From Chloroflexota bacterium (lineage in GTDB: Bacteria > Chloroflexota > Limnocylindria > Limnocylindrales > CSP1-4): DNA of 53,407 nucleotides. This document shows positions 2,503 to 41,914 of the stretch, piece by piece. Within the stretch, counting starts at the first letter, position 1, and every line of letters begins with the position of its first letter. The translations under genes and the position numbers were made by a program. Location of the stretch: NCBI GenBank assembly GCA_034666725.1, contig JAXDLE010000011.1, positions 1-53,407 of the forward strand, in the 5' to 3' direction. Under the pieces are notes generated by a model. It saw only the letters and a list, made by a program, of their open reading frames with translations, was not told where the DNA came from and made no database searches.

Positions 2503-3876
2503 TCAGCTTTCTGAAGCCAGCCTCTTGGCCGCCGTGGCGAACAGGCCGCCCAGCACGCGCACCGTCGTGGGGAACGGGTTGATCGTGTCGGCGAGGACAT
2601 GGAGTGGCGTCCGCGTCTTGACCGCGAGCACTGCCAGGCCAATGGCGTCGGGCGCACCTGGGGCCGCGATGAACGCCCCAAGGAGGCGCCGCTCGGCGCG
2701 ATCGACCACGATCGTCACGTGGCCACCGGCTTCAACGAGTTCGCCCGGCGCAGTCACTCCGTAGTCGACGGTCTCCTCGAACGCGTCATGACCCTGCTCG
2801 CGTGCCTGCTCCAGCTGTAGCCCCACGCCCGCCGTGGGTGGGTCGGTGTAGGTCGCGTGGGGGATGGCCGCGTAATCGGGCTTGACGTCATGGCCCAGCG
2901 CCAGTCGGCCGACCAGTTCGCCCTGGTAGACCGCGAGGTGGGTGTGCATCTCCGGCCCGCCGGCGTCGCCGGCTACGTAGACGTCGTCGGCAACGCGCAG
3001 GTGGTCATCGGGCTGGAGTCGGCCTTTGACGGGGCTCACACCGACCGATTCCAGGCCCAGCCCTTCGAAGGGAACGGTTCGGCCGACAGCCAGCAAGATC
3101 TGCTCGCCCTCAACTGACGAGCCGTCGCTCAGCTCGATCCTATGCTGCCCGTCTTTGCCCGCGTTTGGCGCAAGGCGTGTGGCGCGGACATTGGTGCGAA
3201 TGTCCACACCATCGCGGATCAGCGACTCTGCGATGGCGGCGGCGTTGCGCGGGTGGTCGGTGGGGTAGATGCGCTCGCGCGGCGCGAGGAGCGTCGTCCT
3301 GACGCCGTAGCGGGCGAAGACCTGGGCCATCTCGAGACCGGTTGGCCCGGGCCCGATGATGACGATGCTGCGCGGTAGCTGCCTGAGCGACGTTGCCTCG
3401 CGGTTCGTCCACGGTCTGATCTGATCGAGGCCCGCGATATCAGTGGGGGTGGTCGAGTTGCTCCCGACCGCGATCAGGATCGATCGACCCGTGACTGTCT
3501 GGCGCGTGCCATCGGCGGCCGTGACCTCCACGGCGCCGTGGCCGATGATGCGAGCGCTGCCGCGGATCGTGCTGGCGCCGGCCTCCTGCACCTCAGCCAC
3601 GCGGCGCGCATCGTCGGGGTAGTCGCGGTTCTCGCGGTTGATCTGGTAGTCGCGAAACGCCGCGGCCTTTGCCCAAGGGAAGTCACCGCCGCCCTTGTGG
3701 ATGGCCGCGGCATGGAGGAGCGCCTTCGACGGTATGCACGCCCAGTGGGCGCACGATCCGCCAAAGAGGTCGCGCTCGATGATCGCGACGCTGCCGCCCA
3801 GGCGCCGCGCCTCGTGGGTCGCCGCTTGGCCGGCTTCACCCGAGCCGATCACGATCAGGTCGAAGGGCTTGTCCAC
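2503..3876 (-). CDS. Class I pyridine nucleotide-disulfide oxidoreductase (Lpd/MerA/mycothione-reductase-like flavoprotein)
   Basis: ORF 2503..4155 trimmed to GTG 3876, giving MDKPFDLIVIGSGEAGQ (FAD GxGxxG). It has the redox CxxxxC motif 'GGSCAHWACIPSK', a second Rossmann motif 'IVIIGPGPTGLE' and a C-terminal dimerisation domain. The longer ORF would overlap the divergent rhodanese gene. Confidence 0.8.
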   Translation of the reverse strand: MDKPFDLIVIGSGEAGQAATHEARRLGGSVAIIERDLFGGSCAHWACIPSKALLHAAAIHKGGGDFPWAKAAAFRDYQINRENRDYPDDARRVAEVQEAGASTIRGSARIIGHGAVEVTAADGTRQTVTGRSILIAVGSNSTTPTDIAGLDQIRPWTNREATSLRQLPRSIVIIGPGPTGLEMAQVFARYGVRTTLLAPRERIYPTDHPRNAAAIAESLIRDGVDIRTNVRATRLAPNAGKDGQHRIELSDGSSVEGEQILLAVGRTVPFEGLGLESVGVSPVKGRLQPDDHLRVADDVYVAGDAGGPEMHTHLAVYQGELVGRLALGHDVKPDYAAIPHATYTDPPTAGVGLQLEQAREQGHDAFEETVDYGVTAPGELVEAGGHVTIVVDRAERRLLGAFIAAPGAPDAIGLAVLAVKTRTPLHVLADTINPFPTTVRVLGGLFATAAKRLASES

Positions 3877-3924
3877 GCCGCGCAGACTAGTTGCTGGCCC
3901 GATGATGGATGATGACGCCAGCAC

Positions 3925-4293
3925 ATGAGCGAGCCGCACAGATTTGCCGCGCTTGGGAGCGAGCCGATCCGCACTATCGGCCGCGACGAGCTGAAGAGCA
4001 AGCTCGATCGGGGCGACGACTTCAAGCTCGTCATGGCCCTCAACCGGTGGGCGTACGACGCCAAGCACATACCCGGCTCGCTCCACTTCGACAGCCCAGC
4101 GGAGCTCTATGCCGCCGTGCGACCGGACGACGAGGTGGTCGTCTACTGCTCGCATAACGACTGCCTCTCGAGCGTCGCGATGTACCGCGACCTCGTGAAA
4201 CGCGGCTACAGCAACGTCAGACGTTATTCCGGCGGGTTGCTCGAATGGGAGGACTCCGGCCTGCCTCTGGAAGGGAATTCGGTGGGCGAGTGA
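3925..4293 (+). CDS. Rhodanese-like domain protein (single-domain sulfurtransferase)
   Basis: 122 aa. It contains 'AKHIPGSLHF' and the active-site loop 'VVVYCSHNDCLSS', which are typical rhodanese-domain features. Confidence 0.8.
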   Translation: MSEPHRFAALGSEPIRTIGRDELKSKLDRGDDFKLVMALNRWAYDAKHIPGSLHFDSPAELYAAVRPDDEVVVYCSHNDCLSSVAMYRDLVKRGYSNVRRYSGGLLEWEDSGLPLEGNSVGE

Positions 4294-4787
4294 CGCACAC
4301 GTCCGATCGGTTGCCCGAGCTCCCGTCTGAACATCCCTATCGCGCCCAGATCGACTCCGAGCGGACGGGTTGGTACGAACTCGCGGGCCTGGTTCGGAAT
4401 CTCAGCCCAGAGGAGTCCGTCCTCCCCGGTTATTACAAGAATCCCGACTGGTCGGTGCGCGACGTCGTCGCCCACATCGGCACCTGGCTCGCTCAAGCGG
4501 AGGTCCAGCTCGAGCGCCTCCGTGCCGGGACCTACGAAGGGCACGACATCGACATCGACGCGCTCAACGACGAGATGCTCGACTTGATGAGCGACCAGCC
4601 GTGGAGCGTCGCCTGGGTTCAAGCCAACGCCGGTAGGACGCTGATGCTCCAGGACTTTTACGCGCTCAACAAGCCCGATGCGGAAGCCGCCTGGTGGGTC
4701 GAGAAGTCGGGCGGTGCCCATTACGCCGAGCACCTCCCGCGGCTGAGGGACTGGGTCGCCGAGCTGATCGCCCGCCGCGAGATCTAG
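4290..4787 (+). CDS. DinB-family / mycothiol-dependent-isomerase-like (DinB_2) protein
   Basis: ORF 4245..4787 trimmed to GTG 4290, which overlaps the rhodanese stop (GTGA). The 'WSVRDVVAHIGTW' His-containing helix and the C-terminal 'AHYAEHLPRLRDW' are typical of DinB-fold metal-binding triads. Confidence 0.6.
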   Translation: MTHTSDRLPELPSEHPYRAQIDSERTGWYELAGLVRNLSPEESVLPGYYKNPDWSVRDVVAHIGTWLAQAEVQLERLRAGTYEGHDIDIDALNDEMLDLMSDQPWSVAWVQANAGRTLMLQDFYALNKPDAEAAWWVEKSGGAHYAEHLPRLRDWVAELIARREI

Positions 4788-4813
4788 GATGCCGGCGTGG
4801 GCATTGGCCGATT

Positions 4814-6142
4814 TCAGTCCTCGGGGGCTGCCACCGCGAAGAGCCGCATGTCGCCAGGTATCCCCTTGAGGGTGTGCGTGCCTCGATCGACGAATCTGAT
4901 ACCTGATCCGGCCACCAGATCTCGGACTGTCTGGGAGACGAGGACTTCGTTCGGACTCGCCATTGAGGCGACGCGTGAGCCGATGGTCACGGCAATGCCC
5001 GTGATCTTGTCATCATGCGGTTCGCACTCTCCGACGTGGATGCCGACCCGCGCTTCGAGGCCCAGCGCGCGGACTCCGTCAGTGATGGCCCGCGCTGCAC
5101 CGATCGCCCGCGCCGGACCATCGAAGGTTGCGAAGAAGCCGTCGCCAGCTGTGTCTCGTTCGTGTCCGCGAAACCGACTGAGCTCTCGTCGGACAACGGC
5201 GTGGTGGCGGGAGAGCAGGTCGCGCCAGTTTCGATCGCCGATGCGGGCAGCGTGGTCAGTTGAGCCGACGATGTCAGTGAACATGACCGTGGCGAGGACG
5301 CTCTCCGGTACTGATGGGGCGTCTTCGCCGGCGACAAATCGCTCGATCTCGTCCGCGATGTCGTGTGAGAGAAAGGTCCCGTAATCGTCGTTGCCCGAAA
5401 CGCGCATCGTCTTGGCACGCGGAATACGCGACGCCACCTCCATCGTGCTTACCTCGCGCGGGGAGCGGTAGAGGAGCAGCGTCGGGACGCGCAGTGTCGG
5501 CAGCACATCGCGCAGGTCGGTTTCGTTTACCGCACGGTTGAGCGCATAAGCGACGGCGGGACTCGCCCCAACCCGCAGGTGGTCCGCGAACGAACGACGC
5601 TCGGCCTCGCTGGCAGCGAGAGACGGACAGATGTCCCAGAACAGTTCGTCACACCAAGCCTGGGTGCCCCAACCCTCTCGGAGACGTGCCAGTTCCTGCA
5701 AGTCGGCTTCCGATAATCCGTTTTGCAGCGCGGTGTGAAAGAGCACGAGCGCACGCGTTCGCTCTGGGTACGAAGCGGCGAACATGACGGCCATCCCGCT
5801 CCCCTCCTGCGCGCCGAATACCACTGGACGCGACGACCCTGCCGCATCTAGAACGGCGTGCAGGTCCTCCATGCGTGTCTCCAACGTTGCGAACTGGCCG
5901 CCGTGATCGGAGATGCCGGTTCCACGCTTATCGAACAGGATCAAGCGGAACGAGCGGGCCAGGCGGAGATAGAAATCGCGCAACGGCGGATACCCCCAGC
6001 CGTAGACGAGATTCGAGACCCAGTCCGGAACGTAGACAAGGTCGACATCCCCCTCGCCGACAACCTGGTAGGCAATCGCGACCCCACCGTTTCGCGCGTA
6101 CCGGATATCAGCCGTGCTCAAGCGCTGGGCATCCAACTCCAT
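4814..6142 (-). CDS. Alpha/beta-hydrolase fused to a class III adenylate/guanylate cyclase (LipJ/Rv1900c-like architecture)
   Basis: ORF trimmed to ATG 6142 (MELDAQRL), because the longer form overlaps the helicase gene. The N-terminal half is hydrolase-fold-like (FDKRGTGISD..., AQEGSGMAV in place of the nucleophile elbow). The C-terminal half, 'ATVMFTDIVGSTD...DTAGDGFFATFDGP...VGIHVGE', is a class III cyclase core. Confidence 0.8.
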   Translation of the reverse strand: MELDAQRLSTADIRYARNGGVAIAYQVVGEGDVDLVYVPDWVSNLVYGWGYPPLRDFYLRLARSFRLILFDKRGTGISDHGGQFATLETRMEDLHAVLDAAGSSRPVVFGAQEGSGMAVMFAASYPERTRALVLFHTALQNGLSEADLQELARLREGWGTQAWCDELFWDICPSLAASEAERRSFADHLRVGASPAVAYALNRAVNETDLRDVLPTLRVPTLLLYRSPREVSTMEVASRIPRAKTMRVSGNDDYGTFLSHDIADEIERFVAGEDAPSVPESVLATVMFTDIVGSTDHAARIGDRNWRDLLSRHHAVVRRELSRFRGHERDTAGDGFFATFDGPARAIGAARAITDGVRALGLEARVGIHVGECEPHDDKITGIAVTIGSRVASMASPNEVLVSQTVRDLVAGSGIRFVDRGTHTLKGIPGDMRLFAVAAPED

Positions 6143-6165
6143 CGCGACATTCTCCGCGGTCAGGA

Positions 6166-7581
6166 CTAGCCGCGGGTGAGGCGTTCTCCGGGGATGCTCA
6201 CCGGGCGGCCGATTGAGCCCTGGGAAGGCCGAGGGCCACCGTAGGCGGGCCGACTCTGACCGTAGGCAGGCCGACTCTGACCGTAGGCAGGCCGACCACC
6301 ACTTTGGGCTGGCCGACTCCCACCCTGGGGCCGGTCCGTTCGCTGGGGCTGCCACTCGCGCCGGGGTGCCGGGCGGAAAGCAGCTGGTCGGGACTGTTGG
6401 CCGGCGGGTCGGCTGCCGCGGTTCTGGATGGGCTGCGGGCGGATCGTTCGGTCGGGGGTGAAGCCCGGGATGATCTCCTGCTCAATGCGATGGCCGAGCA
6501 GGCGCTCGATCTCGCCGAGCATCGAATTCTCGTCGACGCAGACCAGCGAGATCGCGTCACCGTCGGTGCCTGCACGGCCGGTGCGCCCGATGCGATGCAC
6601 GTAGTCGGATGCCACCATGGGCAGCTCGTAGTTGACGACGTGGGGGAGGGCATCGATGTCCAGGCCGCGCGCCGCGATGTCTGTCGCGACGAGGATTGCC
6701 ACCTTGTTGCGCTTGAAGTCGGTCAGCGCGCGAACGCGCTGCGGCTGGCTCTTGTTGCCGTGGATGGCAACCGCGCTGATGCCGTCGAGGACCAGCTGCT
6801 GGACGAGCCGATCGGCGCCGTGCTTGGTGCGCGTGAAGACCAGCGCCTGGTAGATGCGACCGCTCTTGACGAGCTGCGACAGGAGCTCGCGCTTGCGGCT
6901 CTTGTCGACCGGCATCACGATCTGCTTGACGAGATCGGGCGCAGTGTTCTTGGGCGTGACCTGGACGTACGCCGGATCCTTCAGGAACTCCGCGGCAAGG
7001 CGGCGGATCTCCATCGAGAACGTGGCGCTGAACAGCAGGTTCTGGCGCGCAACTGGGAGCAGCGCGATGACCTTCTTGATGTCGTGGATGAAGCCCATGT
7101 CGAGCATCCGGTCGGCCTCGTCGAGCACCAGAACCTCGACCCGGGACAGGTCGATCGTGCGCTGGCCCACGTGGTCGAGCAGCCGGCCCGGCGTAGCGAC
7201 GACGATCTGCGGTCCCTGGCGCAGGTTGCGGACCTGCTGCTCAAAACCAACGCCGCCGTAGATGACGGCCGATTGGACCGGTCGCTGCTTGCCGTACGTG
7301 CGGACGCTTTCCTCCACCTGGAGGGCAAGCTCGCGCGTGGGGGTGAGGACGAGCACGCGGATAGGGCTCCGGCCCTCGCGCCTGCTCGCGTTCAGTTTTT
7401 GGAGGATGGGCAGCACGAACGCGGCCGTCTTGCCCGTACCCGTCTGGGCGCCGGCGAGCACGTCGCGGCCCGCGAGCACATGGGGGATTGCTTCGCTCTG
7501 TACGGGCGTGGGCTCTGTGTAGCCCTGCTGCGCCACGGCGCGAAGCAGCTCGGGCGTCAGCCCGACTTGATCGAAAGACAC
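6166..7581 (-). CDS. rhlE: DEAD-box ATP-dependent RNA helicase (RhlE-like) with an Arg/Pro/Gly-rich repeat tail
   Basis: GTG start 9 nt after AGGAG. Motifs present: Q motif (TPVQ), [15 protein letters not shown] and HRIGRTGR. The C-terminal ~90 aa are low-complexity. Confidence 0.9.
6241..6296. repeat. 21-bp tandem repeat (about 2.7 copies) inside the helicase 3' end
   Basis: The units are gtaggcgggccgactctgacc, gtaggcaggccgactctgacc and gtaggcaggccgacc. On the minus strand they encode [21 protein letters not shown]. Confidence 0.9.
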
Positions 7582-7766
7582 GAGGAATAGCTCCTGACGA
7601 GGCCCTCCCGCTCTTGGCGGGGCCCGGTCAGGGCTTAATTAGTTGGTGGATCGAGTCGAACGGAACTTACCGGGGCGCAGACCGGAGCGCCCAACGAACA
7701 CGAGGTGAGCCCGAAGGATAGCAGACGACGAACAAATGTTCGAGTCGGCGGCACCCGCCGCTCAAC

Positions 7767-7982
7767 TCAGGCTTGCGGCTTGGGGCGCTCCGTTTCGACG
7801 TTGTCTGTGTCGACGTCGCTGACCGTCGCGCGCTCCTGCGGCGCCAGGCCGGGCACACCGCCGATGCCTTCGCTCAGGTCCGTGGGATCGGACCTGGCGG
7901 CCTTTTCCGCTGGGTCTGCGCGAGACGGATTCCGCGTGTCCGGGCCACTGGCGAGCGTCGCGTCGCTCTTGTCGTGGGTCAT
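7767..7982 (-). CDS. Small acidic, disordered hypothetical protein (71 aa)
   Basis: MTHDKSDATLASGPDTRNPSRADPAEKAARSDPTDL... Its ATG overlaps the stop of the upstream small ORF (ATGA at 7982-7979). Third-codon positions are strongly G/C, like real genes here. Confidence 0.45.
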   Translation of the reverse strand: MTHDKSDATLASGPDTRNPSRADPAEKAARSDPTDLSEGIGGVPGLAPQERATVSDVDTDNVETERPKPQA

Positions 7983-8167
7983 CGAACCGGCCCTGGCTTG
8001 ATCGTCTTTGCGGGGTGGTTCTTGGACCCGCCGCCCCACTGCGTGGCGCCGCCTGCGCCCGTCCCCAGGTTGTGGGATAGCCCTTGATCGGGCCGCCCGG
8101 TGTACGCGTCCTTGGGATGCTGGCTCTTGGCTGGGTTGTTCTTGTCTGGCGTCTCTCGTTTGCTCAT
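7979..8167 (-). CDS. Small basic, hydrophilic hypothetical protein (62 aa)
   Basis: Internal ATG 8167 of ORF 7979..8227 gives MSKRETPDKNNPAKSQHPKDAYTGRPDQGLSHNLGTGAGGATQWGGGSKNHPAKTIKPGPVR. By hand count, about 80 % of third positions are G/C. It is coupled to the downstream small ORF. Confidence 0.45.
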   Translation of the reverse strand: MSKRETPDKNNPAKSQHPKDAYTGRPDQGLSHNLGTGAGGATQWGGGSKNHPAKTIKPGPVR

Positions 8168-8304
8168 GCATACGAATATCGCGCGGCGGGCGCAACAGTC
8201 GTGACTCAGGGCGCCCCTGCCCAGCATTACGAGTGCGCGACTACTACCGCACCGGTCACGCGACGCCGACTCGCGAATAGCCAGGACGTTCCGTCCGAAG
8301 ATGA

Positions 8305-9279
8305 CTACATTCGCGACAGAAGGTCGTTCTTCTTCTGCTCGAACTCGTCTGCGGAAATGATCCCAGCATCGCGGAGCTCGGCCAGCTTCTTAATCTGATC
8401 AGGGATATCGACTTGAGGTGCCGCTGCCGCCGCGGGCCTGGTTCGCTCGAGCCGGATAGCCCGCATTCGCTGTTCGACTTCGACCTTGACACGCTCGAAG
8501 GCCTCGCGCCGACTCGAGTCAAACATCACCGCGTTCTCATCTTCGGACGCTGTTTTCGCTGCTGTCGAACCACCGATGAGCTCAAACTGAATATGACCGA
8601 GCCAAAGCGACCCGGGGTTGCGCCACTGGATTCCAGCGATCTGGTCGATCCAGACATCCTTGTCACCTTTCTGAAAGCCCTTGGTCATTAGGCCCCGCAG
8701 GCCGTGATGTTTGATCCGGATCTTGTCGGGGAACACCCAAACGTGTCCGCCGTTTCCCTCCGCCTCAATGATCAGCGACTCGCTGTCGCCGGGCATGTGA
8801 CTTGACCGCGTCTGCGCTGGACCAATGACTCCAAGTTCCTCCGCCTCTATCAGGCTCTTGCCCTCGGCCGCGCCAACACTCGGCACATTCCGGATGAGCC
8901 TTTCGACCTCAGGCGCAAGTGTCTCCGCGACCTTGTCGCTCTTCGTTTGAATGACATAGTCAAGTTTGCCGAAGTCAGAGAATCCAAACGCCTTTGAAGG
9001 TAGGCTCGGTCCGGCCAGTGCCAAACAACTCTTGAAGCCCTTTTGAAGGTCGACCCCGTCGAGTACCTCATAGGGCCATCTCCGCCATCCGCCCTTCGAG
9101 TAGATGTAGGCCGCTGAATCAGTTGCCACCAGGCCAGCCTTACCCATGCCGTTGATTACTACTCGGATTGTTTCTGCCTCCGGAATGACGCCGATCAGCG
9201 CCACGTGAATGTCCGGATGGAGCCGGTTCAGATCGTTTGGCGCTCCGACGTCAGCCGTGACACACCTCCCACCAAGCAA
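8305..9279 (-). CDS. DUF4429 (bacterial PH-like) domain protein with a C-terminal SHOCT domain
   Basis: 'GHVWVFPDKIRIKHHGLRGLMTKGFQKGDKDVWIDQIAGIQWRNPGSLWLGHIQFELIGG' resembles DUF4429. The C-terminal 'IKKLAELRDAGIISADEFEQKKNDLL' is a SHOCT motif. The start is uncertain (TTG 9279 or GTG 9204). Composition is low G+C. Confidence 0.65.
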   Translation of the reverse strand: MLGGRCVTADVGAPNDLNRLHPDIHVALIGVIPEAETIRVVINGMGKAGLVATDSAAYIYSKGGWRRWPYEVLDGVDLQKGFKSCLALAGPSLPSKAFGFSDFGKLDYVIQTKSDKVAETLAPEVERLIRNVPSVGAAEGKSLIEAEELGVIGPAQTRSSHMPGDSESLIIEAEGNGGHVWVFPDKIRIKHHGLRGLMTKGFQKGDKDVWIDQIAGIQWRNPGSLWLGHIQFELIGGSTAAKTASEDENAVMFDSSRREAFERVKVEVEQRMRAIRLERTRPAAAAAPQVDIPDQIKKLAELRDAGIISADEFEQKKNDLLSRM

Positions 9280-9395
9280 TGATCCCTCGGCACGTCCGCG
9301 GTCGCAATGGCTGACGCTCGGTAACCATTCCCAATTTGGGCGAGCAATCCAACAGGGGTGCCGACGCGCCTTCTAGGCGTCATGATCTGCTCGGC

Positions 9396-9793
9396 ATGTC
9401 GACAATGGATGAGGCGACCACTCGGACCGCGCTGATCGATCCGACCCTGCACTCCCGAGGCTGGACCGAGGAGCTCATCAAGCGCGAGGAAACTCTCGGC
9501 ACCGTCGAGATCGTCGCTACGACCTGTCTGGCACCAAGGTGACGAAGAACCAACCGCTCACCATAGATCGCTTTGAAGAGTTCTTCGCGCTCAAGGATGC
9601 GCGGGCGGACTCAGAGCACTCGTGGACGCTCGCGCGCGCGGAGATCGAAGCCCGAGGGTTTGACCTCAAGGCCGTCAACCCGAACGCAAAGTCGGATGTG
9701 GACACGCGAACGCCGGCTGAACTGTTGGCTGAGATCGAGGAACGCCACGCCGAGGTCGGGGAGGCAATCGCGGAGCTGCGGCGCCTGCTATAG
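9396..9793 (+). pseudogene. Type I restriction-modification remnant: HsdR N-terminal fragment abutting an HsdM C-terminal fragment
   Basis: 9396..9542 encodes MSTMDEATTRTALIDPTLHSRGWTEELIKREETLGTVEIV, which resembles the start of the HsdR N-terminal domain, then stops after ~48 aa. 9539..9793 encodes ...SWTLARAEIEARGFDLKAVNPNAKSDVDTRTPAELLAEIEERHAEVGEAIAELRRLL, which resembles an HsdM C-terminal tail. No methylase core, HsdS or HsdR helicase/nuclease region is present. Confidence 0.6.
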
Positions 9794-9874
9794 GAGCGCC
9801 CAAGCGCAGTATGTAAGCGGCATCTCCAGAGTTTGGCTGCGGCTCATCAGTTGTTGCACCTGCAGCACCGCGAC

Positions 9875-10309
9875 CTAGAGGCCCGGCACCTGTCCATCAG
9901 CGGGCCACTCGCGGTACTCGCACCCAGCGGCGATGAGGCGTCGTATCGGACGGCTCTTGTCACCGTTGATGTGGACGTGCGCTGCGCCGAAAGACAAGTC
10001 GTTCGGCTCCCAAGTCACCCCCAATCCGAGGCCGCGCAGAAGCGCGACTGTGATCGCGACGACCCCAAACCCTTCAAAACCTGCGATAAGGTCGCGCGCA
10101 GCAGCTCCCAATTCGTGCAAGCGCGTTTCCTCGAAAACCGAAACCGCGGTCTTGCCGGTCTCTCGGTCGGTCAGGTTTTGGAACGCATTACTGGTCACGC
10201 GCAGCGCGTTTCCATCCATTGCCATCTGGCTTGGATGTACTACCCTCAGAACGTAGGAGTCGTCACCGATGGACTCGTCGTCTTGCGGTCCCTCATCCAC
10301 GCTCGCCAT
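9875..10309 (-). CDS. Hypothetical protein (144 aa), last gene of the island operon
   Basis: ATG start 12 nt after the stop of the upstream gene. It has an acidic N-terminus (MASVDEGPQDDESIGDD) followed by 'YVLRVVHPSQ...RVTSNAFQN'. I recognise no family. Confidence 0.6.
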   Translation of the reverse strand: MASVDEGPQDDESIGDDSYVLRVVHPSQMAMDGNALRVTSNAFQNLTDRETGKTAVSVFEETRLHELGAAARDLIAGFEGFGVVAITVALLRGLGLGVTWEPNDLSFGAAHVHINGDKSRPIRRLIAAGCEYREWPADGQVPGL

Positions 10310-10321
10310 TCACGCGGCGGG

Positions 10322-10819
10322 TCAGAGCCCTGGATGCACAAGGCTCGTTAGAACCTGAACGACACGCGGCAATGCACTGACAAGGTCGTCCTCCCACTCA
10401 GAGTTTGTTGCGGCGTCCATCAGGTAGGCGGTTGCGTTCCGAATGCCAGATGCACCTGACAACTCGATCGCAAACTCGAACAAAGGTCGACGCCATTCGA
10501 TCGAAATGCCGCCATCAGGTCGAGGGACGATCCGCGGCTCCTGAACGCTCTGGACTAGAAGTTGAGACAACACGTTCCTCGCGTCTGCTGCGGCTACGTC
10601 ACTTATCGGTTCTCCGCCATGCAGATCCCAATTCCGCCCCAGCCTGAGTAAAGGCGCAAGATGGGTTTCGATCCAGCGGTCGACAGCTCCGTGCGACCCA
10701 CCGAAGAGCCAATCCATTGAGCCGTATGCAAGGTCGGCAGAGCTCATTGTGGGTGTCTCGTGAGCGGGTTCCCGTCGGATGGCAGGGCTATTGGTGAGCT
10801 CACGTTCTGAAAGCACCAT
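10322..10819 (-). CDS. Hypothetical protein (166 aa), middle gene of the island operon
   Basis: ORF 10322..10915 trimmed to ATG 10819, 26 nt after the TIGR04255-like stop. It contains 'LGRNWDLHGGEPISDVAAADARNVLSQLL...PRIVPRPDGGISIEW'. I cannot name the family. Confidence 0.6.
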   Translation of the reverse strand: MVLSERELTNSPAIRREPAHETPTMSSADLAYGSMDWLFGGSHGAVDRWIETHLAPLLRLGRNWDLHGGEPISDVAAADARNVLSQLLVQSVQEPRIVPRPDGGISIEWRRPLFEFAIELSGASGIRNATAYLMDAATNSEWEDDLVSALPRVVQVLTSLVHPGL

Positions 10820-10845
10820 CCCTTGCGGGATCCACGTTGCGGTGA

Positions 10846-11685
10846 TCACGAGGCCTCCTTCCAGGATTGCTGAACATCCTCGCGGATAAGTCCGATAAAT
10901 GCCTTCCAGGCCCACTCTCTCCCTAGATCCTGAAAGGCGACAACGCCTTCGATGCCCTCGCCGATTGGGAGACCGCGCGCCGTGGAATTGAGTACGGCGA
11001 TTGCTTTTCCATCAGAACGTCGAACAGCAGTATTCACTGTGACATGAAGGCGGCCCACGCTGGCCCCTTCGTTGCTTAAGAGGTAATTCAACGCAATGCC
11101 CTGACCGTCGGGAGGCAGGTCGAATGATGCTGGAGGATCACTCACAACGGACAATATCGATGACAGAGGCAGATCCGCCTCTCCATCGGGCAGCTCGATA
11201 TGGTCGACGTATGTGATTTCGCACTGGGTGGGCACCAGTCCGCCGATCCCCTCGGACGCAAGGTAACTCTGAAACTTCGTTAGGTCCGCGACGAATGCGT
11301 CACTGAGTGCCGGATACCGTGGATATCCTTCCTGATCGTCAACGCGACGCCAATTCCGCGCGAACCAATCGTTCTGGATTTGCACCAACTGGCTCCCGGC
11401 GTTGTCGATCAGCCAGAGTCTGGGTAACGCCACATCGACCAGCTCCAACGTAATGGTTGGCCCAGGTGGTTGGCCGAAAGTCTCGATCTGTAGCTTGTAT
11501 GGCGGCTTTTGCTCCACGTTGGGGAATCGTTCCTTGAATGCCGCCCAAAGCCCTCCGAACTGGACCACAGTGAAGGGGAGTGGCTGAAATCCGACCGAGA
11601 GGATGAGTTCCCGGATAGGGGGCGCCAAGAAACGCAAGTGCGAACTGATTCCGCGCTGGCTGGCTGTGCTCACCGGCTTAGGCAT
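10846..11685 (-). CDS. TIGR04255-family protein (sporadically distributed, function unknown)
   Basis: ORF 10846..11970 trimmed to ATG 11685. The blocks 'PPIRELILSVGFQPL', 'RLWLIDNAGSQLVQIQNDWFARNWRRV...GYPRY' and 'QCEITYVDHI' match my recollection of the TIGR04255 signature. This was not searched. Confidence 0.6.
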   Translation of the reverse strand: MPKPVSTASQRGISSHLRFLAPPIRELILSVGFQPLPFTVVQFGGLWAAFKERFPNVEQKPPYKLQIETFGQPPGPTITLELVDVALPRLWLIDNAGSQLVQIQNDWFARNWRRVDDQEGYPRYPALSDAFVADLTKFQSYLASEGIGGLVPTQCEITYVDHIELPDGEADLPLSSILSVVSDPPASFDLPPDGQGIALNYLLSNEGASVGRLHVTVNTAVRRSDGKAIAVLNSTARGLPIGEGIEGVVAFQDLGREWAWKAFIGLIREDVQQSWKEAS

Positions 11686-11798
11686 GTGACGTCGTGGTGC
11701 TTCGGGCTGGCCGCAATATGCAAAAGATACTAGGGAACCCACACTGCCGGATGAGTCTGTGCTCGGGTGGGAGCCGACCCAGCGGTCAGCGCGAATAG

Positions 11799-12059
11799 CT
11801 AGTGCACGCTCCAGCGGCGCCAAGGCAGCGCGCTTGCGGGGATCTTCGACAGGAAGCGGACGATGTCGGGCCTGCCTCTGTATTCGATCCGCTGACCTTC
11901 TCGTCGCGCCATAAATACGACATTTGCCCCCGGCCACCAGCGGTGACAATCCGGCAGCAGGCGCTCCCACGCTCGTGGCGAATCAAAGATGTGCGCCTTG
12001 ACAGGGACTACTACGAAGGTGACGCCTTGCTCTTTGACTAGTGCAGCTTCAACGCTCAT
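11799..12059 (-). CDS. Small hypothetical protein (86 aa)
   Basis: ATG start preceded by AAGGGAG with ~9 nt spacing. The product is MSVEAALVKEQGVTFVVVPVKAHIFDS...RGRPDIVRFLSKIP. I recognise no family. It lies 113 nt upstream of the TIGR04255-like gene. Confidence 0.55.
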   Translation of the reverse strand: MSVEAALVKEQGVTFVVVPVKAHIFDSPRAWERLLPDCHRWWPGANVVFMARREGQRIEYRGRPDIVRFLSKIPASALPWRRWSVH

Positions 12060-12136
12060 GACAGTAGCTCCCTTATGACGCCTATATGCCGGTAGGCAAG
12101 TTCCCAGACGAGCGTGACAGCTTGCGTGGCACGATC

Positions 12137-15100
12137 TCAGCTACAGCCGGACGTGGAGCCGCAGTTCAAGCACTTGTAGCAAGAGCCATTGCGGACCATG
12201 ATCGAGCCGCAGTCCGCGCACGAGGGCGAGTCGGCCGAGACGGAGAATGCGACTTTTGGGCCGCCGCCGAGCTCAACACCTCCGGCGCTCAGAGGCTTCA
12301 GAGGCAGGGCAGGCGTGGCGTGGCCGTTTGAGTAGGCCAGGTTGGAGTGGACGGGGAGGTCGGTGCCGCCGACAGCGCTTGCGGGAGGAGGTTCCGCAAT
12401 CATCGCCGACGCTTTGGGCCCACCGGCCTCCCCGATGGTTGAAGTATCAACCTTCTCTGACGTAGGGGCGAGGGGAGATGCGACTTCTGACGCGATTGGC
12501 ATTTCTGAAGCGGCCGCGGCAGGTGTCGCGGAACCACCCCAGGACTCAGGGAGCGCACCGTACTGTGCGTCGACGTCGTCCCTGCTGATGATGCCGAGAG
12601 CGTCGCGCTCATCCTTGCCCAGGAACCGACTTCCCATCCAGCGGAAGATGTAGTCCACGACCGACTTGGCGATCGGGATCTCCGGGTTGCCGGTGAAGCC
12701 AGCCGGCTCGAAGCGCGCGTGGGCGAACTTGTTGACCAGGTCGCGCAGCGGCACGCCGTACTGGAGCGACAGCGAGGTCATCGTCGCCAGCGTGTCCATG
12801 AGACCGCTGATCGTCGAGCCCTCCTTGGACATCTTGAGGAAGATCTCGCCGGGCGTCCCGTCGGGGTACAGGCCGACCGTGATGTAGCCCTCGTGGCCGG
12901 CGACCTGGAACTTGTGCGTGAGCGCGCGGCGCTCATCTGGCAGGCGGCGGCGATACGGCTTGGGCTCAGGCGGAAGCGCAGCCTCGACAGGGGCGGCGGC
13001 AACTGGCGCTGCCTCAACCACTGGCGCATCCTTCTTCTTGCCCGTCGAGAGCGGCTGCGAGCGCTTGCTGCCATCGCGATAGATCGCGATCGCCTTCAGG
13101 CCGAGCTTCCAGCCCTCCATGTAGACATCGGCGATCTCGTCGGCCGTGGCCGCCTCGGGCATGTTGACGGTCTTGGAGATGGCGCCTGAGATGAACGGCT
13201 GCGCCGCGCCCATCATGCGGACGTGGCCCATGTAGTGGATGGAGCGCTCGCCGTTGACCGGCTTGAAGGCACAATCGAAGACGGACAGATGGGCAGGAGA
13301 GAGGTGCGGGGCGCCCTCGATGGTCTCGTGCTCGTCGATGAACCTGACGATCTCTTCGACCTGCGTCGGGCTGTAGCCGAGCTTGCGCAGGGCCGCGGGC
13401 ACCGTCTTGTTTACGATCTTGAGGAAGCCCTCACCGACCAGCTTCTTGTACTTGATGAGCGCGATGTCCGGCTCGATGCCGGTCGTGTCGCAATCCATCA
13501 TGAAAGCGATCGTGCCAGTCGGCGCAAGCACGGTCACCTGGGCATTGCGATACCCGAACTGCGTGCCCAGTTCGAGTGCCGCGTCCCAGGATGACCGTGC
13601 CGCGTCGATCAAATCGGACGGCGCGCCGTCGCCAGCGGGGATGGCGTACGCCGCGTCGCGGTGTTTTGCGATGACTCGGAGGAAAGGCTCCTCGTTCTTG
13701 CTGTATTCCTTGAACGCGCCACCGTGGTCGCGCGCGATAACGGCCGACTGGGCGTAGGCCGAGCCGGTCATGATCGCCGTGAGTGCAGCCGCGGTCGCGC
13801 GGCCCTCGTCGGAGTCGTACGCCAGGCCGCGGCTCATGAGCAGCGCGCCAAGGTTGGCGTAGCCGAGGCCGAGCGGGCGGAAGAGGTGCGAGTTGAGCTC
13901 GATCTGGGGAGTCGGGTACCCGGCGTTGTCGACCAGGATCTCCTGCGCCGTGATCGTCAGGCGCGCGGCGTACTTGTACGCCTCGATGTCGACCTCGCCA
14001 TCTTCCTTGACGAACTTCATCAGGTTGAGGCTGGCCAGGTTGCAAGCGGTGTCGTTGAGGAACATGTACTCGGAGCACGGGTTGCTGCCGTAGATGCGGT
14101 CCGTGGCGAGCGACGTGTGCCAGTCGTTGATCGTGGTGTCGTACTGGATGCCGGGGTCGCCGCAGATCCAGGCGGCGTCGGCCATGCGCTTGAAGACGTC
14201 GCGCGCCTTGTAGGTGGCCTCAGCCTCGCCGCTGACGATGCCGATCGTGTCCCAGTCTTTGTCCGTTTCGACGGCGTGCATGAAGTCGTCCGTCACGCGC
14301 ACGCTGTGGTTCGCGTTCTGGAACATGACGCTGCCGTAGGCCTCACCGGTGAATGACGCGTCGTAGCCTTGCTCGATCAGCGCCCAGGCCTTCTTTTCCT
14401 CGTTCGCCTTGGAGTCGATGAAGTCGAGGACGTCCGGGTGGTCGGCGTTGAGGATGACCATCTTGGCCGCGCGGCGGGTTGTGCCGCCCGACTTGATGGC
14501 GCCGGCGAACGCGTCTAGGCCGCGCATGAAGCTGACGGGGCCGCTGGCCACGCCGCCCTTGGAGAGCCGCTCGTTGGCGCCTCTTAGCGGGCTGAGATTG
14601 ACGCCCGAGCCGGAGCCGTACTTGAACAGCATCGCCTCTGTCTTGGCGAGGTCCATGATGCTGCCCATGTCGTCGCGGACCGAGTTGATGAAGCACGCCG
14701 AGCACTGCGGCTTCTCTTCGACGCCGACGTTGAACCAGACCGGCGAGTTGAAGCTCATCTTCTGGTTGACCAGCAGATGCGTCAGCTCAGCCTTGAATGC
14801 CGCCAGGTCGTCCTGCGACGCGAAGTAGTGCTGCGTCGCGGCCCATGCGGAGATGGTGTTGACCACGCGGTCGATGAGCTGCTTGACGCTGCGCTCGCGG
14901 CCGGGTGAGCCGACGTGGCCGCGGAAGTACTTGCTGACGACGACGTTGGTCGCGAGCTGGCTCCAGAAGGACGGCACCTCGATGTCTTCCTGGACGAAGA
15001 CGACCTTGCCCGACTCGTTCTTGATCTCCGCGGTGCGCAGCTCCCAGGTGATCTCGTCATAGGGATGAACGTCAGGCCGCGTCCAGCGCCGATCCCACTC

Positions 15101-15271
15101 GAGGCCGTTCACGCCGCGGCCGGTGAAGCGACCGTCCGCGTCGATGGGGGAGCGCTCCGCGTCGTGCTTCTCAAGCACCCCGATGAGCTCCGAGTTGGCG
15201 GCGATCACTGACGTTCCGTCGTCGTTCGTCGCGGTCGCTTCTGTGCTCTCGGAACCCGGCGCCTGCAGCAT
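12137..15271 (-). CDS. nrdJ: Class II (adenosylcobalamin-dependent) ribonucleoside-diphosphate/triphosphate reductase
   Basis: ORF 12137..15634 trimmed to ATG 15271 (MLQAPGSE), preceded by GGAGAGAGGGAG. The active-site region is '...YGSNPCSEYMFLNDTACNLASLNL'. The C-terminal Cys cluster is 'CADCGSIMVRNGSCYKCLNCGSTSGCS'. I see no intein-like insertion. Confidence 0.92.
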   Translation of the reverse strand: MLQAPGSESTEATATNDDGTSVIAANSELIGVLEKHDAERSPIDADGRFTGRGVNGLEWDRRWTRPDVHPYDEITWELRTAEIKNESGKVVFVQEDIEVPSFWSQLATNVVVSKYFRGHVGSPGRERSVKQLIDRVVNTISAWAATQHYFASQDDLAAFKAELTHLLVNQKMSFNSPVWFNVGVEEKPQCSACFINSVRDDMGSIMDLAKTEAMLFKYGSGSGVNLSPLRGANERLSKGGVASGPVSFMRGLDAFAGAIKSGGTTRRAAKMVILNADHPDVLDFIDSKANEEKKAWALIEQGYDASFTGEAYGSVMFQNANHSVRVTDDFMHAVETDKDWDTIGIVSGEAEATYKARDVFKRMADAAWICGDPGIQYDTTINDWHTSLATDRIYGSNPCSEYMFLNDTACNLASLNLMKFVKEDGEVDIEAYKYAARLTITAQEILVDNAGYPTPQIELNSHLFRPLGLGYANLGALLMSRGLAYDSDEGRATAAALTAIMTGSAYAQSAVIARDHGGAFKEYSKNEEPFLRVIAKHRDAAYAIPAGDGAPSDLIDAARSSWDAALELGTQFGYRNAQVTVLAPTGTIAFMMDCDTTGIEPDIALIKYKKLVGEGFLKIVNKTVPAALRKLGYSPTQVEEIVRFIDEHETIEGAPHLSPAHLSVFDCAFKPVNGERSIHYMGHVRMMGAAQPFISGAISKTVNMPEAATADEIADVYMEGWKLGLKAIAIYRDGSKRSQPLSTGKKKDAPVVEAAPVAAAPVEAALPPEPKPYRRRLPDERRALTHKFQVAGHEGYITVGLYPDGTPGEIFLKMSKEGSTISGLMDTLATMTSLSLQYGVPLRDLVNKFAHARFEPAGFTGNPEIPIAKSVVDYIFRWMGSRFLGKDERDALGIISRDDVDAQYGALPESWGGSATPAAAASEMPIASEVASPLAPTSEKVDTSTIGEAGGPKASAMIAEPPPASAVGGTDLPVHSNLAYSNGHATPALPLKPLSAGGVELGGGPKVAFSVSADSPSCADCGSIMVRNGSCYKCLNCGSTSGCS

Positions 15272-15377
15272 GTTCGGGGTCTCCCTCTCTCCTCGTAGCG
15301 GGGCCGTCTGGGGCATCTGGGCCGGCCAGCCGCATCCCCCAATGCTAGGCATGGGGTAGGGCAGTGTCAAGACTGAA

Positions 15378-15395
15378 ACCACAACATCTGGTGGT
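15378..15395. promoter_or_regulatory. NrdR-box-like imperfect palindrome upstream of nrdJ
   Basis: accacaacatctggtggt matches its own reverse complement at 14 of 18 positions. It lies ~107 nt upstream of the nrdJ ATG. Its outline resembles the 16-bp NrdR box. I could find only one box. Confidence 0.3.
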
Positions 15396-15459
15396 CCGGC
15401 TTGTTTTGTAATGCTAGGCCTAGTGGTTCGGTGAAAACCGTGGTGGACAGCCCGTGGAG

Positions 15460-15528
15460 CGTCTGGGGACCGTCTGGGGACGCTCGGTGGACGGCCGACG
15501 ACGCCCAGTGGACGGCCGATGACGCCCT
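15460..15528. repeat. Short tandem repeats (11 bp x2 and 21 bp x2) in the nrdJ upstream region
   Basis: cgtctggggac occurs at 15460-15470 and again at 15471-15481. gtggacggccgacgacgccca (15487-15507) is followed by gtggacggccgatgacgccct (15508-15528). Confidence 0.85.
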
Positions 15529-15540
15529 CAGCCGGCATGG

Positions 15541-15910
15541 CAGGACCGATGCCGGTGTGGCTGGCATATCGGGGACATCGGACGCTTAAGCACCGACCAA
15601 CCCCCCCGCCGCCACGCTCAGTTTCCGCGCGCACGCTGACTTGGGGTGCGCGGCAGACTCCTTATGCCGCGCCTGTGGCAGTTATGCCGGTGTGGTTGGC
15701 ATTCAAGAGCCTGGGCCCGGCTTGACGTTGGCAATGTCGGCGTGGCCGACATATCGGGGCTAATAGAGGCTTAAGGCACCGATTGATCGGCCGTCTCACC
15801 CTCAGCTCGAGTCGGACACGCTGGCGTGGAGCCCGCCCCGAGTCGCTTGTGCCTCGCCAAGGCCAGTTATGTCGGTGAGGCCGACACTCCAAGGGTCTAG
15901 GCGGCGGCAC
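15541..15910. repeat. Diverged 185-bp tandem duplication (2 copies) containing four 19-nt hairpins
   Basis: The anchors are offset by exactly 185 nt. Hairpins A 15549-15567 and C 15734-15752 are each followed by atcgggg...gcttaag(g)caccga. 'cacgctg' occurs at 15632 and 15817. Hairpins B 15684-15702 and D 15869-15887 are each preceded by g(g)cagttat. Confidence 0.85.
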
Positions 15911-15922
15911 GGTCGCCCATCT

Positions 15923-16717
15923 TCAGGGGCCGCGCCTGCCGAATTCGTCCAGAAGCAGTTGGATCTCACCCACTTTGCGGAACCCGACGCCCTCCAGCAC
16001 GGGCCGGGACATCTGTCCGCCCTGAGTGAATAGCGCGGGCGTGCCGTTACGAACGGCCTCATCCCAGCGAGCGTTCAGCAGCGCCCGATAGCCGCCGCGA
16101 CCGCGAGCGCTCGGAAGGGTCGCGCCACCGAAGAGCAGCAGGCCGTGCTCGGTGATTGCCGAGGTGCCGGCCGAGACCATCTCCCCGTCGATCCAGGCGG
16201 CGTGCATCACGTTCACGGTTTCGCGCCAGCGCTCTTCGAATTTGGAGCGCGCCTCGGCGATCTCGTCCTCCGTTGATTCGAACGCCTTCATCTGAACCTC
16301 GTTCGCTGTCACGTACTCGTCGAAGGTCTCGAGCCGCCGCGCGACCACTCCGGGCGGCGGCGCCGGTGGCGGCTGAGTCAGGACGAGGGCTGCCGCGACT
16401 GGATCCTTGTCGCGGATCAGTCCCAGTGCGAGCAAGCGATCGACGAGGTCATTCGGAGTCGCTTTGCTCCCGACTTCCCACTGGGTCGACTCACGGCCGC
16501 GCTGGCGCAGCAGGCCGCGAACCTCCTCGACGGCCGTCTCAACCTGGTCTGCCGCCAACCGTTGACGCTGCACGGTGTTCCACTTGGAGCCGCCCGCGCC
16601 AATCCACAGGCTGTATCGGTCGTTTTCGATCAGCTCGTCGCGCGGTCCGAGCGGCGCGAACGAATTCGGGTACTCGGCGATCTCGCGCAGCAGCTCGTCG
16701 TCATCGGACAGCGTCAC
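15923..16717 (-). CDS. GNAT family N-acetyltransferase
   Basis: ORF trimmed to GTG 16717, which overlaps the stop of the upstream giant gene (GTGA). The C-terminal 'LLLFGGATLPSARGRGGYRALLNARWDEAVRNGTPALFTQGGQMSRPVLEGVGFRKVG' is an acetyl-CoA-binding (R/Q-x-x-G-x-G/A) region. Confidence 0.7.
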   Translation of the reverse strand: MTLSDDDELLREIAEYPNSFAPLGPRDELIENDRYSLWIGAGGSKWNTVQRQRLAADQVETAVEEVRGLLRQRGRESTQWEVGSKATPNDLVDRLLALGLIRDKDPVAAALVLTQPPPAPPPGVVARRLETFDEYVTANEVQMKAFESTEDEIAEARSKFEERWRETVNVMHAAWIDGEMVSAGTSAITEHGLLLFGGATLPSARGRGGYRALLNARWDEAVRNGTPALFTQGGQMSRPVLEGVGFRKVGEIQLLLDEFGRRGP

Positions 16718-19932: not shown

Positions 19933-19942
19933 GGCGCCAATG

Positions 19943-20668
19943 CTATGCGGGCGGACCCGTGGCGGGCCGGTCCCAGACGGCGGTGTACCAGAGGAGCGTG
20001 GAGTCGGAGCTGCGCCGGTGGAAACCCTCGGCCGCCAGGCGCCGCTCGATGTCGTCGACGCTGTGGACGTAGCCGGGACAGTCGTCCTTCCGGACGCGCG
20101 TGAGCAGCGACTCGAAGCCCCACATGATCTTGTTGGCGAGACCGCGCACGCCGCGTGAAGTGGGCACGCTGAATGCGACTCGCGCCGGCTTTGCGGACAG
20201 TGCCGCGCCAATGAGCCGGGGCATATCCGGGTAGCAGCAGATCGCGCGGTCGAGCAGCACCCAGTCGTGCGCGGCGTGGGTCACGCGGGCGCCGTCGGCA
20301 ATCTCGAAATGGGCACGTTCGGCTACGCCTGCGTCTGCCGCGCGGCGCTGGGCAGTCGCGATCGCCTCCGGGGAGAGGTCGACCCCATCCGCGGCACTGG
20401 CGCCGCGCGTCAGCAGTGTCACCAGGAGGGCCGCGCTGCCGCAGCCAAGTTCGAGGATCGTCGGCCGCGCGTCCGCGACATCGTCCAGCTGCGCCAACAG
20501 CCGCTCCGAGACGGCGACCATGGACGGAAGCACGGTCCCGTCTTCTGTGCGCTGGCGGGTCATGTGGTCGAAGTGTGCTGGGATGCGCGGGTCGGGGCAG
20601 CAGTCGGCAGCGGCCGGCCTGGCGGGAGAGTCAGGGGAGTCGGTCCTGTTGGGCCCGTCGGCTAGCAT
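19943..20668 (-). CDS. Class I SAM-dependent methyltransferase
   Basis: Motif I is 'ILELGCGSAAL' and an acidic post-I motif 'GVDLSPEAI' follows. Overall it is about 240 aa. The start could be an internal ATG. Confidence 0.7.
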   Translation of the reverse strand: MLADGPNRTDSPDSPARPAAADCCPDPRIPAHFDHMTRQRTEDGTVLPSMVAVSERLLAQLDDVADARPTILELGCGSAALLVTLLTRGASAADGVDLSPEAIATAQRRAADAGVAERAHFEIADGARVTHAAHDWVLLDRAICCYPDMPRLIGAALSAKPARVAFSVPTSRGVRGLANKIMWGFESLLTRVRKDDCPGYVHSVDDIERRLAAEGFHRRSSDSTLLWYTAVWDRPATGPPA

Positions 20669-41065: not shown

Positions 41066-41172
41066 GCTCGGCCCGGGGGTTTCCACCACATCCTCCCTCC
41101 GCGATGGGTGCCATTCGCGCTGACGGAGCATAGCGGCCGAGCAACGGCCTGGGCCTCTCCGCGAAGCCGTGG

Positions 41173-41844: not shown

Positions 41845-41914
41845 CTGCGCTGATTGTCGCCGCGCGGAGATACTTGGTTCGAAACAGAATGGTCAAGCTG
41901 AGAGGGAAGCCGAA

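Follow-up and report, generated by a model that had tools for sequence, protein, structure and literature searches.

A low-G+C accessory block downstream of nrdJ in a Chloroflexota metagenome-assembled genome as the likely current filling of a genus-wide variable slot

We analyzed a 53,407-nt contig (JAXDLE010000011.1; "the window" below always means this whole stretch) of the metagenome-assembled genome (MAG) GCA_034666725.1, from an uncultured bacterium of the Chloroflexota (Limnocylindrales group), in which a block of ~4 kb with low guanine-plus-cytosine (G+C) content lies between the genes for a DEAD-box RNA helicase and for the class II ribonucleotide reductase NrdJ. In composition and in gene content alike, this block is a genuine island, far beyond what chance would produce, and it is made up, as a mosaic, of three or more pieces that evolve independently of one another, among them a three-gene cassette headed by a TIGR04255 gene and the scar of a type I restriction-modification (R-M) operon. 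On the evidence from related genomes, we consider it likely that the block is the current filling of a variable slot that exists throughout the genus and is anchored at the 3′ end of nrdJ, and that the mosaic was acquired horizontally.

The MAG (G000 in our genome set) comprises 2.34 Mb in 187 contigs, is 85.6% complete, and contains the window as its contig C11. Positions 8290–12135, which a preliminary description made from the sequence had proposed as a low-G+C accessory island, have a G+C content of 0.591, compared with 0.671 for the MAG as a whole and 0.669 for the remainder of the window. None of the 3,371 genome windows of the same length was as low (mean 0.671, standard deviation 0.015; z = −5.4). 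The tetranucleotide L1 distance of the block was 0.367 versus 0.161 ± 0.027 for the genome, making it the most extreme of 909 windows, a ranking made against a trimmed background since MAG binning strips atypical contigs. Specifically, sliding-window G+C dropped from ~0.66–0.68 to 0.57–0.60 between ~8100 and ~12200, and the maximum-likelihood two-boundary change point fell at 8100–12199 (G+C of 0.592 inside and 0.657 outside). The initial coordinates were therefore accurate to ~200 bp, and the low G+C content claimed for them was borne out; hereafter, we place the low-G+C block, which has no strand of its own, at 8100–12136. The G+C content of third codon positions (GC3) points the same way, ranging from 0.58 to 0.78 in the island genes and reaching 0.85 in both the helicase gene and nrdJ, with a genome median of 0.84 across 1,377 open reading frames (ORFs) of at least 250 amino acids (aa). 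Among these long ORFs, the TIGR04255 gene ranks in the lowest 1.3% and a DUF4429-SHOCT gene at the other end of the block in the lowest 4.1%.

Comparison with eight genomes of the same genus showed where conservation ends on either side. blastn alignments to these genomes stop at 7705–7750, ~125 to 170 bp upstream of the helicase start, and restart at 12133–12144, i.e., at the nrdJ stop codon (12137), and the non-conserved interval therefore spans ~7751–12136. To its left lies the helicase gene, which is kept in the relatives (6166–7581, (−) strand), together with its conserved upstream region (5′ leader or promoter; 7582–7750, (−) strand), where the homology stops; to its right lies nrdJ (12137–15298, (−) strand), which is 78 to 83% identical within the genus. 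Both are core genes, as had been proposed: the helicase was found at E ≤ 1e-50 in 29 of the 31 searched genomes (G000 counted), with 66 to 92% identity within the genus, and nrdJ was present in 28 of them. The first part of the interval, 7751–8100 (no strand), is not conserved and has a host-like G+C content (0.66 to 0.71); it had no blastn or tblastn match in the slots of the relatives or elsewhere in the MAG, and no Pfam or PHROG hit. It holds the putative "small-ORF pair" of the preliminary description, namely (−)-strand ORFs within 7767–8227, between which and nrdJ the insertion had been placed. The nrdJ edge of that placement stands, but the left edge does not, as the interval is variable from ~7751 onward and the pair lies inside it.

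The same description had raised the question of whether the helicase gene and nrdJ adjoin in other genomes. In all eight relatives, the two genes share a single contig and are 1 to 22 kb apart, yet in none are they directly adjacent. The slot between them is variable throughout and measures 0.8, 1.7, 6.7, 7.9, 13.5, 17.5, 18.9, and 21.1 kb, the shortest (807 bp, in G012) being the nearest to an empty site. In the sister family, whose genomes are ~1.1 Mb in size, the linkage is not maintained and the two genes are on different contigs. On the other side of nrdJ, a giant Zn-ribbon/cyclase/STAND/TPR gene (window 15923–20668) is syntenic with positions 1–1634 of the metagenome contig L050 (69% nucleotide identity over 785 bp), and thus the upstream side of nrdJ is conserved and its downstream side variable.

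These comparisons also bear on whether the DNA of another organism was misjoined into the contig during assembly or binning. The fragmented, incomplete state of the MAG and the standing of the block as its strongest compositional outlier would both fit such an artefact. However, the helicase gene and nrdJ are neighbours at 1 to 22 kb on single contigs in the eight relatives, the junction between nrdJ and the cassette was found again in four independent assemblies (see below), and each breakpoint is at a precise landmark, the stop codon of nrdJ on one side and the helicase leader on the other. An artefact is, in our judgment, very improbable.

Almost no ORF families are common to the slots of different relatives, and only 7 of the 111 ORFs in these slots had a homologue of ≥50% identity anywhere in G000. 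Likewise, the island proteins had no tblastn match in the slots of the eight relatives or elsewhere in the MAG. Besides ordinary-looking genes, the slots of the relatives carry N6_N4 DNA methylases (three), PIN proteins (three), a MazF (one), and SLFN-g3 helicases (two). Next to nrdJ, many of the genes have a low GC3 and are defence-type: in G016 and G017 the product is a methylase, in G003 and G009 it is an SLFN helicase, and in G008 it is a cyclase-DUF6582 protein. Five relatives, but not G000, have a second DEAD-box helicase gene inside the slot, its product being 45 to 47% identical to the flanking one (G002:C1:474329-475468, G008:C9:971378-972517, G009:C1:250853-252019, G010:C40:1856-2989, and G017:C4:605613-606752). 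In G017, the helicase 5′ region is in addition duplicated, with window positions 7431–7703 aligning at two places.

The part of the filling that can be followed farthest is the cassette, a translationally coupled three-gene operon on the (−) strand. Its first gene (10846–11685) encodes a protein of 279 aa, counted from the ATG at 11685, that matches NCBIfam TIGR04255 with 48.3 bits against a curated cut-off of 30 (residues 116–301 of the long ORF on model positions 4–171 of 252); we collected 99 homologues of 270 to 295 aa, several of them labelled TIGR04255 by their sources. The second gene, ORF5 (175 aa; 10322–10849, (−) strand), begins with a GTG that overlaps the TIGR04255 stop codon (GTGA) and is preceded by a GGAAGGAGG ribosome-binding site. 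ORF5 matches PADLOC PDC-M32A (E = 1.2e-8; profile positions 264–342 of 375), and its family combines a variable N terminus with a conserved domain of ~110 aa ("NWDSYG...LEWH") that has no catalytic-looking invariant residues. This domain is homologous to the C-terminal third of PDC-M32A, and all 31 scanned family members match that profile. The third gene, ORF4 (144 aa; 9875–10309, (−) strand), starts 12 nt after the ORF5 stop codon and is PDC-M32B-like: its own match to the PADLOC profile reaches only E = 3.2e-3, with 8 of 31 family members at ≤1e-3 (best, 1.2e-6), and its family has no Pfam match. The homologues of ORF4 and ORF5 were gathered from loci beside TIGR04255 genes, a word-seeded search having returned only three and one relatives, respectively.

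Among known systems, the untested PADLOC candidate PDC-M32 offers a close comparison, with ORF5 matching its A protein, ORF4 (at a marginal score) and 8 of 31 homologues matching its B protein, and the A-like gene preceding the B-like gene. Unlike PDC-M32, the cassette has a separate TIGR04255 protein ahead of this pair, the A profile is matched only at about positions 258–365 of 375 so that its first ~255 positions have no counterpart, and ORF4 reaches PDC-M32B only at E = 3e-3. The TIGR04255 protein was tried as the missing N-terminal part of PDC-M32A and rejected, as seven family members gave no hit at E ≤ 1. The one paper found to name PDC-M32 (PMC12429752) is reportedly, going by its title and abstract, about prophage gene content in Sinorhizobium meliloti.

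The distribution of the cassette is sporadic. The TIGR04255 gene was found in 0 of 31 other genomes of the genus and in 5 of 400 genomes of the phylum, and a scan of one genome per prokaryotic species yielded 80 TIGR04255 loci, which span Chloroflexota, Acidobacteriota, Actinomycetota, Proteobacteria, Planctomycetota, and other phyla. Directly downstream of the gene, an ORF5 homologue was present at 62 of the 80 loci and an ORF4 homologue as well at 32, always in the same order, and at none of the 80 did nrdJ lie within 6 kb. In comparison, the alleles closest to the cassette of the window came from metagenome contigs of related organisms, of which at least four (L036, L050, L051, and L052) have the cassette directly after nrdJ, and on another (L037) the TIGR04255 gene lies 3.9 kb downstream of nrdJ. 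On L036, the C terminus of NrdJ is 71% identical to that in the window and the cassette proteins are 54, 46, and 64% identical, with a gene for an MmeI-type enzyme next. On the 264-kb contig L050, synteny with the window runs through the STAND-cyclase gene and nrdJ; the cassette there encodes proteins that share 55, 44, and 63% identity with their counterparts in the window, and next to it come a gene for 107 aa and one for an SLFN helicase. The arrangement on L051 and L052 is the same. The nrdJ-linked alleles share 55 to 75% identity with each other versus 41 to 44% with a non-linked allele from another genus of the same family.

That the nrdJ-linked alleles are mutually closest is what one would expect if the cassette were an ancestral, vertically inherited neighbour of nrdJ that was lost many times, its low G+C content being intrinsic and not a sign of transfer. 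Indeed, the cassette had a lower G+C content than its host wherever this was examined (in L036 and G211 as well as here), and it is co-directional with nrdJ, lies 77 to 220 nt after it, and is separated from it by no terminator match, so that the two may be co-transcribed. However, none of the 31 other representatives of the genus carries the cassette, and in the nrdJ tree, in which the genus forms a poorly resolved radiation, G000 and L050 were sisters in 0 of 200 bootstrap trees, so many independent losses would be required. Moreover, between these same two organisms the cassette proteins are 44 to 64% identical versus ~79% for nrdJ, and the family is scattered over many phyla at a prevalence of 1 to 2%, which implies horizontal transfer at some level. 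Vertical inheritance would also leave the R-M scar and the DUF4429-SHOCT gene unexplained, and we regard it as unlikely, albeit the most serious of the rival explanations. At 44 to 64% identity, the cassette alleles found at the same site indicate a long-standing or recurrently exchanged occupant rather than a recent import. For the same reason, and because the cassette keeps its low G+C content across hosts, low G+C cannot be equated with recent import here.

The scar of the type I R-M operon adjoins the cassette. Its hsdR remnant (9396–9542, (+) strand) consists of the first ~41 codons followed by an out-of-frame tail and a stop codon (48-codon ORF), and its hsdM remnant (9539–9793, (+) strand) consists of the last ~60 to 84 codons of a type I methyltransferase gene (84-codon ORF). 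By tblastn, the hsdR remnant matches the extreme N terminus of an annotated HsdR on the Carboxydocella plasmid CP028515 (61.5% identity, E = 2e-9); it was not detected by the Pfam profiles HSDR_N and HSDR_N_2 and had no PDB hit. The hsdM remnant matches PADLOC MTase_I (E = 2.5e-10; profile positions 398–489 of 491) and residues 432–491 of PDB entry 5ybb_A (E = 3.7e-5). The remnants are in different frames, and the deletion junction lies at ~9519–9545. Such a junction of hsdR with hsdM is explained by the order of the CP028515 operon, hsdR-hsdS-hsdM, from which we estimate that ~4.7 kb were deleted. hsdS is absent at the scar, where only ~41 codons of hsdR and ~84 of hsdM are left. The likeness to the CP028515 operon thus extends to a recognisable HsdR N terminus, a recognisable HsdM C-terminal helix region, and the R-S-M order, but here the nuclease/helicase, specificity, and methylase cores are deleted, leaving a dead scar. 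No intact type I system was found elsewhere in the MAG (no HSDR_N hit and one marginal N6_Mtase hit).

The remaining two genes of the block have affinities of their own. The leftmost (8305–9279, (−) strand) encodes a 324-aa protein with DUF4429 (PH-like) and SHOCT domains (Pfam E = 2.8e-9 and 2.3e-10, respectively) that also matches phrog_2700 (4e-12) and phrog_888 (5e-10). Its N-terminal half has no family match, and its C-terminal half shares 67% identity with a 423-aa protein encoded in a different context on the metagenome contig L133. Together with the R-M scar and the TIGR04255 match, this bears out the three gene assignments made from the sequence at the outset, i.e., a DUF4429-SHOCT protein, a type I R-M scar, and a TIGR04255-like protein. 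At the nrdJ end, an 86-aa gene (11799–12059, (−) strand) with an AAGGGAG ribosome-binding site matches phrog_23950 over its full length (E = 3.1e-22). Its protein family occurs in phages and conjugative plasmids, and ~40% identical homologues are found on 21 plasmids, including plasmids of Rhizobium, Agrobacterium, and Leptolyngbya. In both plasmid regions inspected (L141:2725-3261, NC_021910; L142:2726-3258, NZ_CP028921), a DUF2188 gene precedes the 86-aa homologue; in one an AAA ATPase and S8 peptidase pair is nearby, and in the other an MvaI/BcnI restriction enzyme and Vsr. The DUF2188 gene and the 86-aa gene may belong together as a conserved pair, with only the second member present in the window. 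The 86-aa gene had no hit in L036 or L050, and its absence from these other nrdJ-linked cassettes marks it as a separate addition.

Searches for signs of mobility agreed with the statement of the preliminary description that no integrase, transposase, tRNA, or convincing direct repeat is visible. Specifically, there is no tRNA in the whole 53-kb window; Rfam returned nothing significant over 6000–17000 (one chance-level sRNA match inside nrdJ, with E = 0.58 and far below the gathering score); and Pfam detected no mobility domain in any ORF of ≥60 aa of the stretch and no remnant of a mobility gene in alternative frames. The best direct repeats, 8272/11790 (13 nt, one mismatch) and 7828/11804 (19 nt, 89%), were considered as att sites and rejected, being no better than ~25 other chance families in 5 kb. 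In the slot, neither G000 nor five relatives (G002, G003, G009, G016, and G017) have a tyrosine recombinase, and no serine recombinase or transposase is among the 25 of 65 slot Pfam families listed, which are those with the most members, no individual check having been made.

A single foreign integrative element inserted in recent times, or a prophage or integrative and conjugative element reduced to a remnant, with its integrase and att sites since decayed, would account for a G+C content that is evenly low over ~4 kb. It would also suit the matches of the 86-aa and DUF4429-SHOCT genes to phage protein families, the distant cassette homologue on L038 that adjoins a tail tape-measure gene, and the two weak direct repeats. 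Nevertheless, cassettes at the same site are only 44 to 64% identical and are followed by different distal cargo (the MmeI-type enzyme in L036, the SLFN helicase in L050), the slot varies in all eight relatives and has no tyrosine recombinase in the five listed above, and the repeats are at chance level. In addition, no relatives of the cassette or of the 86-aa gene turned up among 2.9 million IMG/VR viral contigs or in a phage collection, and on these grounds a phage origin of either was rejected. We therefore consider an integrative element quite improbable.

A variable slot filled from outside remains the explanation that we favour. Horizontal entry is indicated because the distribution of the block is sporadic and its G+C content persistently low, and the earlier suggestion of horizontally acquired accessory DNA is sustained by the foreign composition, by the absence of the TIGR04255 gene from the 31 other genomes of the genus, and by the lack of any island protein in the eight slots of the relatives. 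The two observations that would have spoken for native DNA were not made: the composition is not flat, and the block is not syntenic in all relatives. As for the proposed insertion between core genes, the foreign filling was upheld, whereas a single insertion was not, the slot being variable in every relative. Of the pieces, the first would comprise the 86-aa gene of a plasmid/phage family followed by the operon of TIGR04255, PDC-M32A-domain, and PDC-M32B-like genes, perhaps of toxin-antitoxin or abortive-infection type; the second would be the type I R-M operon, in which an internal deletion of ~4.7 kb has removed everything between codon ~41 of hsdR and the ~84 codons that end hsdM; and the third would be the DUF4429-SHOCT gene. 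The three-gene operon appears to be an old or repeatedly exchanged resident of the slot, with diverged alleles after nrdJ in related organisms. Fillings are presumably gained, exchanged, and lost when DNA that arrives by transformation or transduction recombines homologously with the conserved flanks, and also by local deletion; we consider recombination through the flanks the most likely route because no mobility machinery was found here or in the slots of the relatives.

Several points weigh against this explanation. Recombination via the flanks is deduced from missing mobility genes, and no recombination tracts have been demonstrated. The long slots of G016 and G003 have host-like G+C content and high GC3, and therefore not all fillings look foreign; some of the variation in slot length may reflect ordinary differences in gene content. 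The comparison uses one genome per species, which puts gain and loss within species beyond its reach. With regard to a defence role, the block of G000 contains no complete known defence system, full DefenseFinder/PADLOC system calling not having been run; PDC-M32 is an unvalidated candidate of which only the C-terminal third of the A protein is matched; and in 31 other genomes the cassette has varied neighbours, for the most part housekeeping genes, so guilt by association fails to establish a defence role. An enrichment of defence genes around the cassette in those genomes was accordingly considered and found unsupported. The label "defence-island-like" is partly justified: the dead R-M remnant, the homology to PDC-M32, and the neighbours in the slots of the relatives speak for it, but no complete known system is present and the neighbourhoods of the cassette elsewhere show no clear enrichment in defence genes.

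What the cassette does can be approached through its protein models. The AlphaFold2 model of the TIGR04255 protein (mean predicted local distance difference test [pLDDT] score, 92.9) resembles two units of a beta-sheet plus a long helix, and a fold search with it gave weak helix-grip (START/Bet v 1/PYL) matches only; a literature search found no paper mentioning TIGR04255. In the ORF4 family alignment, S57 and H111 are invariant and R22, S40, F43, and R92 nearly so. The ORF4 model (pLDDT, 93.4) has KptA/Tpt1 (9ldi), DarT (7yk3_C), and AvrPphF (1s21) as its top PDB neighbours, all three of them proteins of ADP-ribosyltransferase fold but matched non-significantly (E = 0.18 to 0.42, template modelling [TM] score ≤ 0.41, 9 to 12% identity). 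The modelled ORF4 places a conserved Arg, a Ser-Ser-x-Ala-Phe motif, and a His on a small alpha/beta core; its resemblance to KptA/Tpt1, the DarT of DarTG, and AvrPphF/HopF is at the level of the fold, with no PDB or Pfam sequence-profile hit. An ADP-ribosyltransferase fold for ORF4 is accordingly a lead and not a result. PDB sequence-profile searches returned nothing for any of the three cassette families, and further fold searches gave sub-significant matches only.

We would suggest, tentatively and as one possibility among others, that the three genes form a self-contained module of toxin-antitoxin or abortive-infection-like type, in which ORF4 would act as the effector, ORF5 would be its partner or neutralise it, and the TIGR04255 protein would sense a ligand or a protein. 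A more elaborate version is frankly speculative: a three-component immune or abortive-infection system in which a tandem helix-grip-like sensor, an ORF5 adaptor or antitoxin, and a minimal ORF4 of ADP-ribosyltransferase fold work together, and in which the placement after nrdJ is itself functional. If true, the cassette could, for example, be read through from the nrdJ transcript and in this way be expressed or triggered when a phage perturbs nucleotide metabolism. Alternatively, the position after nrdJ would be a by-product of a recombination hotspot.

A few further observations concern the genes and families involved. On a Chloroflexia MAG contig (CAWGEL010000028.1, 6411–32173), two TIGR04255 cassettes (L057 and L058) lie ~13 kb apart in opposite orientation, each with a short SHOCT-like hit ~2 kb downstream; the pair may have arisen by inverted duplication or may mark both ends of an element. 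L050 nrdJ (3543–8477) encodes 1,644 aa with Intein_splicing and LAGLIDADG hits, and the nrdJ tblastn matches in G003:C6:849849-853826 and G004:C111:15526-19905 are split by ~1.2 to 1.3 kb at about residues 420 and 596. The nrdJ of the window has no intein, so that intein occupancy differs within the genus at two sites. At G000:C66:4946-6244, a helicase paralogue (57% identity) was matched across an in-frame TAA stop codon, which may reflect a pseudogene, two separate genes, or an error of sequencing. Elsewhere in the window, a 300-aa ORF (41169–42068, (+) strand) has a GC3 of 0.55, one of the lowest values for long ORFs in the MAG, and may represent either a further foreign gene or a spurious ORF.

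The block fits a known kind of locus, the core-gene-flanked hotspot, and a defence function is plausible. In Pseudomonas aeruginosa, the core defence hotspots cDHS1 and cDHS2 are flanked by core genes, belong to no class of mobile genetic element (MGE), range from 1 to 224 kb, and have a lower G+C content, and recombination via their conserved flanks has been proposed (PMC10250203). MGE-free defence hotspots have likewise been described in the Escherichia coli pan-genome, e.g., hotspot #37, which is occupied in K-12 (PMC10121019). The slot described here shares with these hotspots a fixed position between core genes, variable length and content, lower G+C, cargo of R-M or defence type, the lack of a recognisable mobile-element class, and flank recombination as the proposed route. 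It differs from them in that the comparison is between species, with one genome each, and not across hundreds of strains; in that the slots are small (0.8 to 21 kb), are anchored at the nrdJ stop codon, and have no flanking tRNA or tmRNA; and in that G000 has no complete known defence system and the slots of two relatives are host-like in composition. With a classical genomic island, the block has in common its deviant composition and its absence from the same site in close relatives whose flanks are conserved; unlike such an island, it has no integrase or transposase, no tRNA or tmRNA target, and no flanking repeats, and its cassette occurs at the same site in some metagenomic relatives.

Low G+C content at the nrdJ slot is, as a caution, no proof of recent import. 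With that in mind, the integrase-free, core-gene-flanked type of hotspot known from Pseudomonas and E. coli would extend to an uncultured, small-genome lineage of Chloroflexota, and the slot at the 3′ end of nrdJ offers a concrete place in which to seek new defence cargo in this lineage. A by-product of the analysis is the definition of a widespread three-gene module whose order is conserved across many phyla and which is related to the candidate system PDC-M32. With confident structure models for two of its proteins, this module would be a tractable target for phage-challenge and toxicity assays, and we see in it the most promising lead to come from the block.

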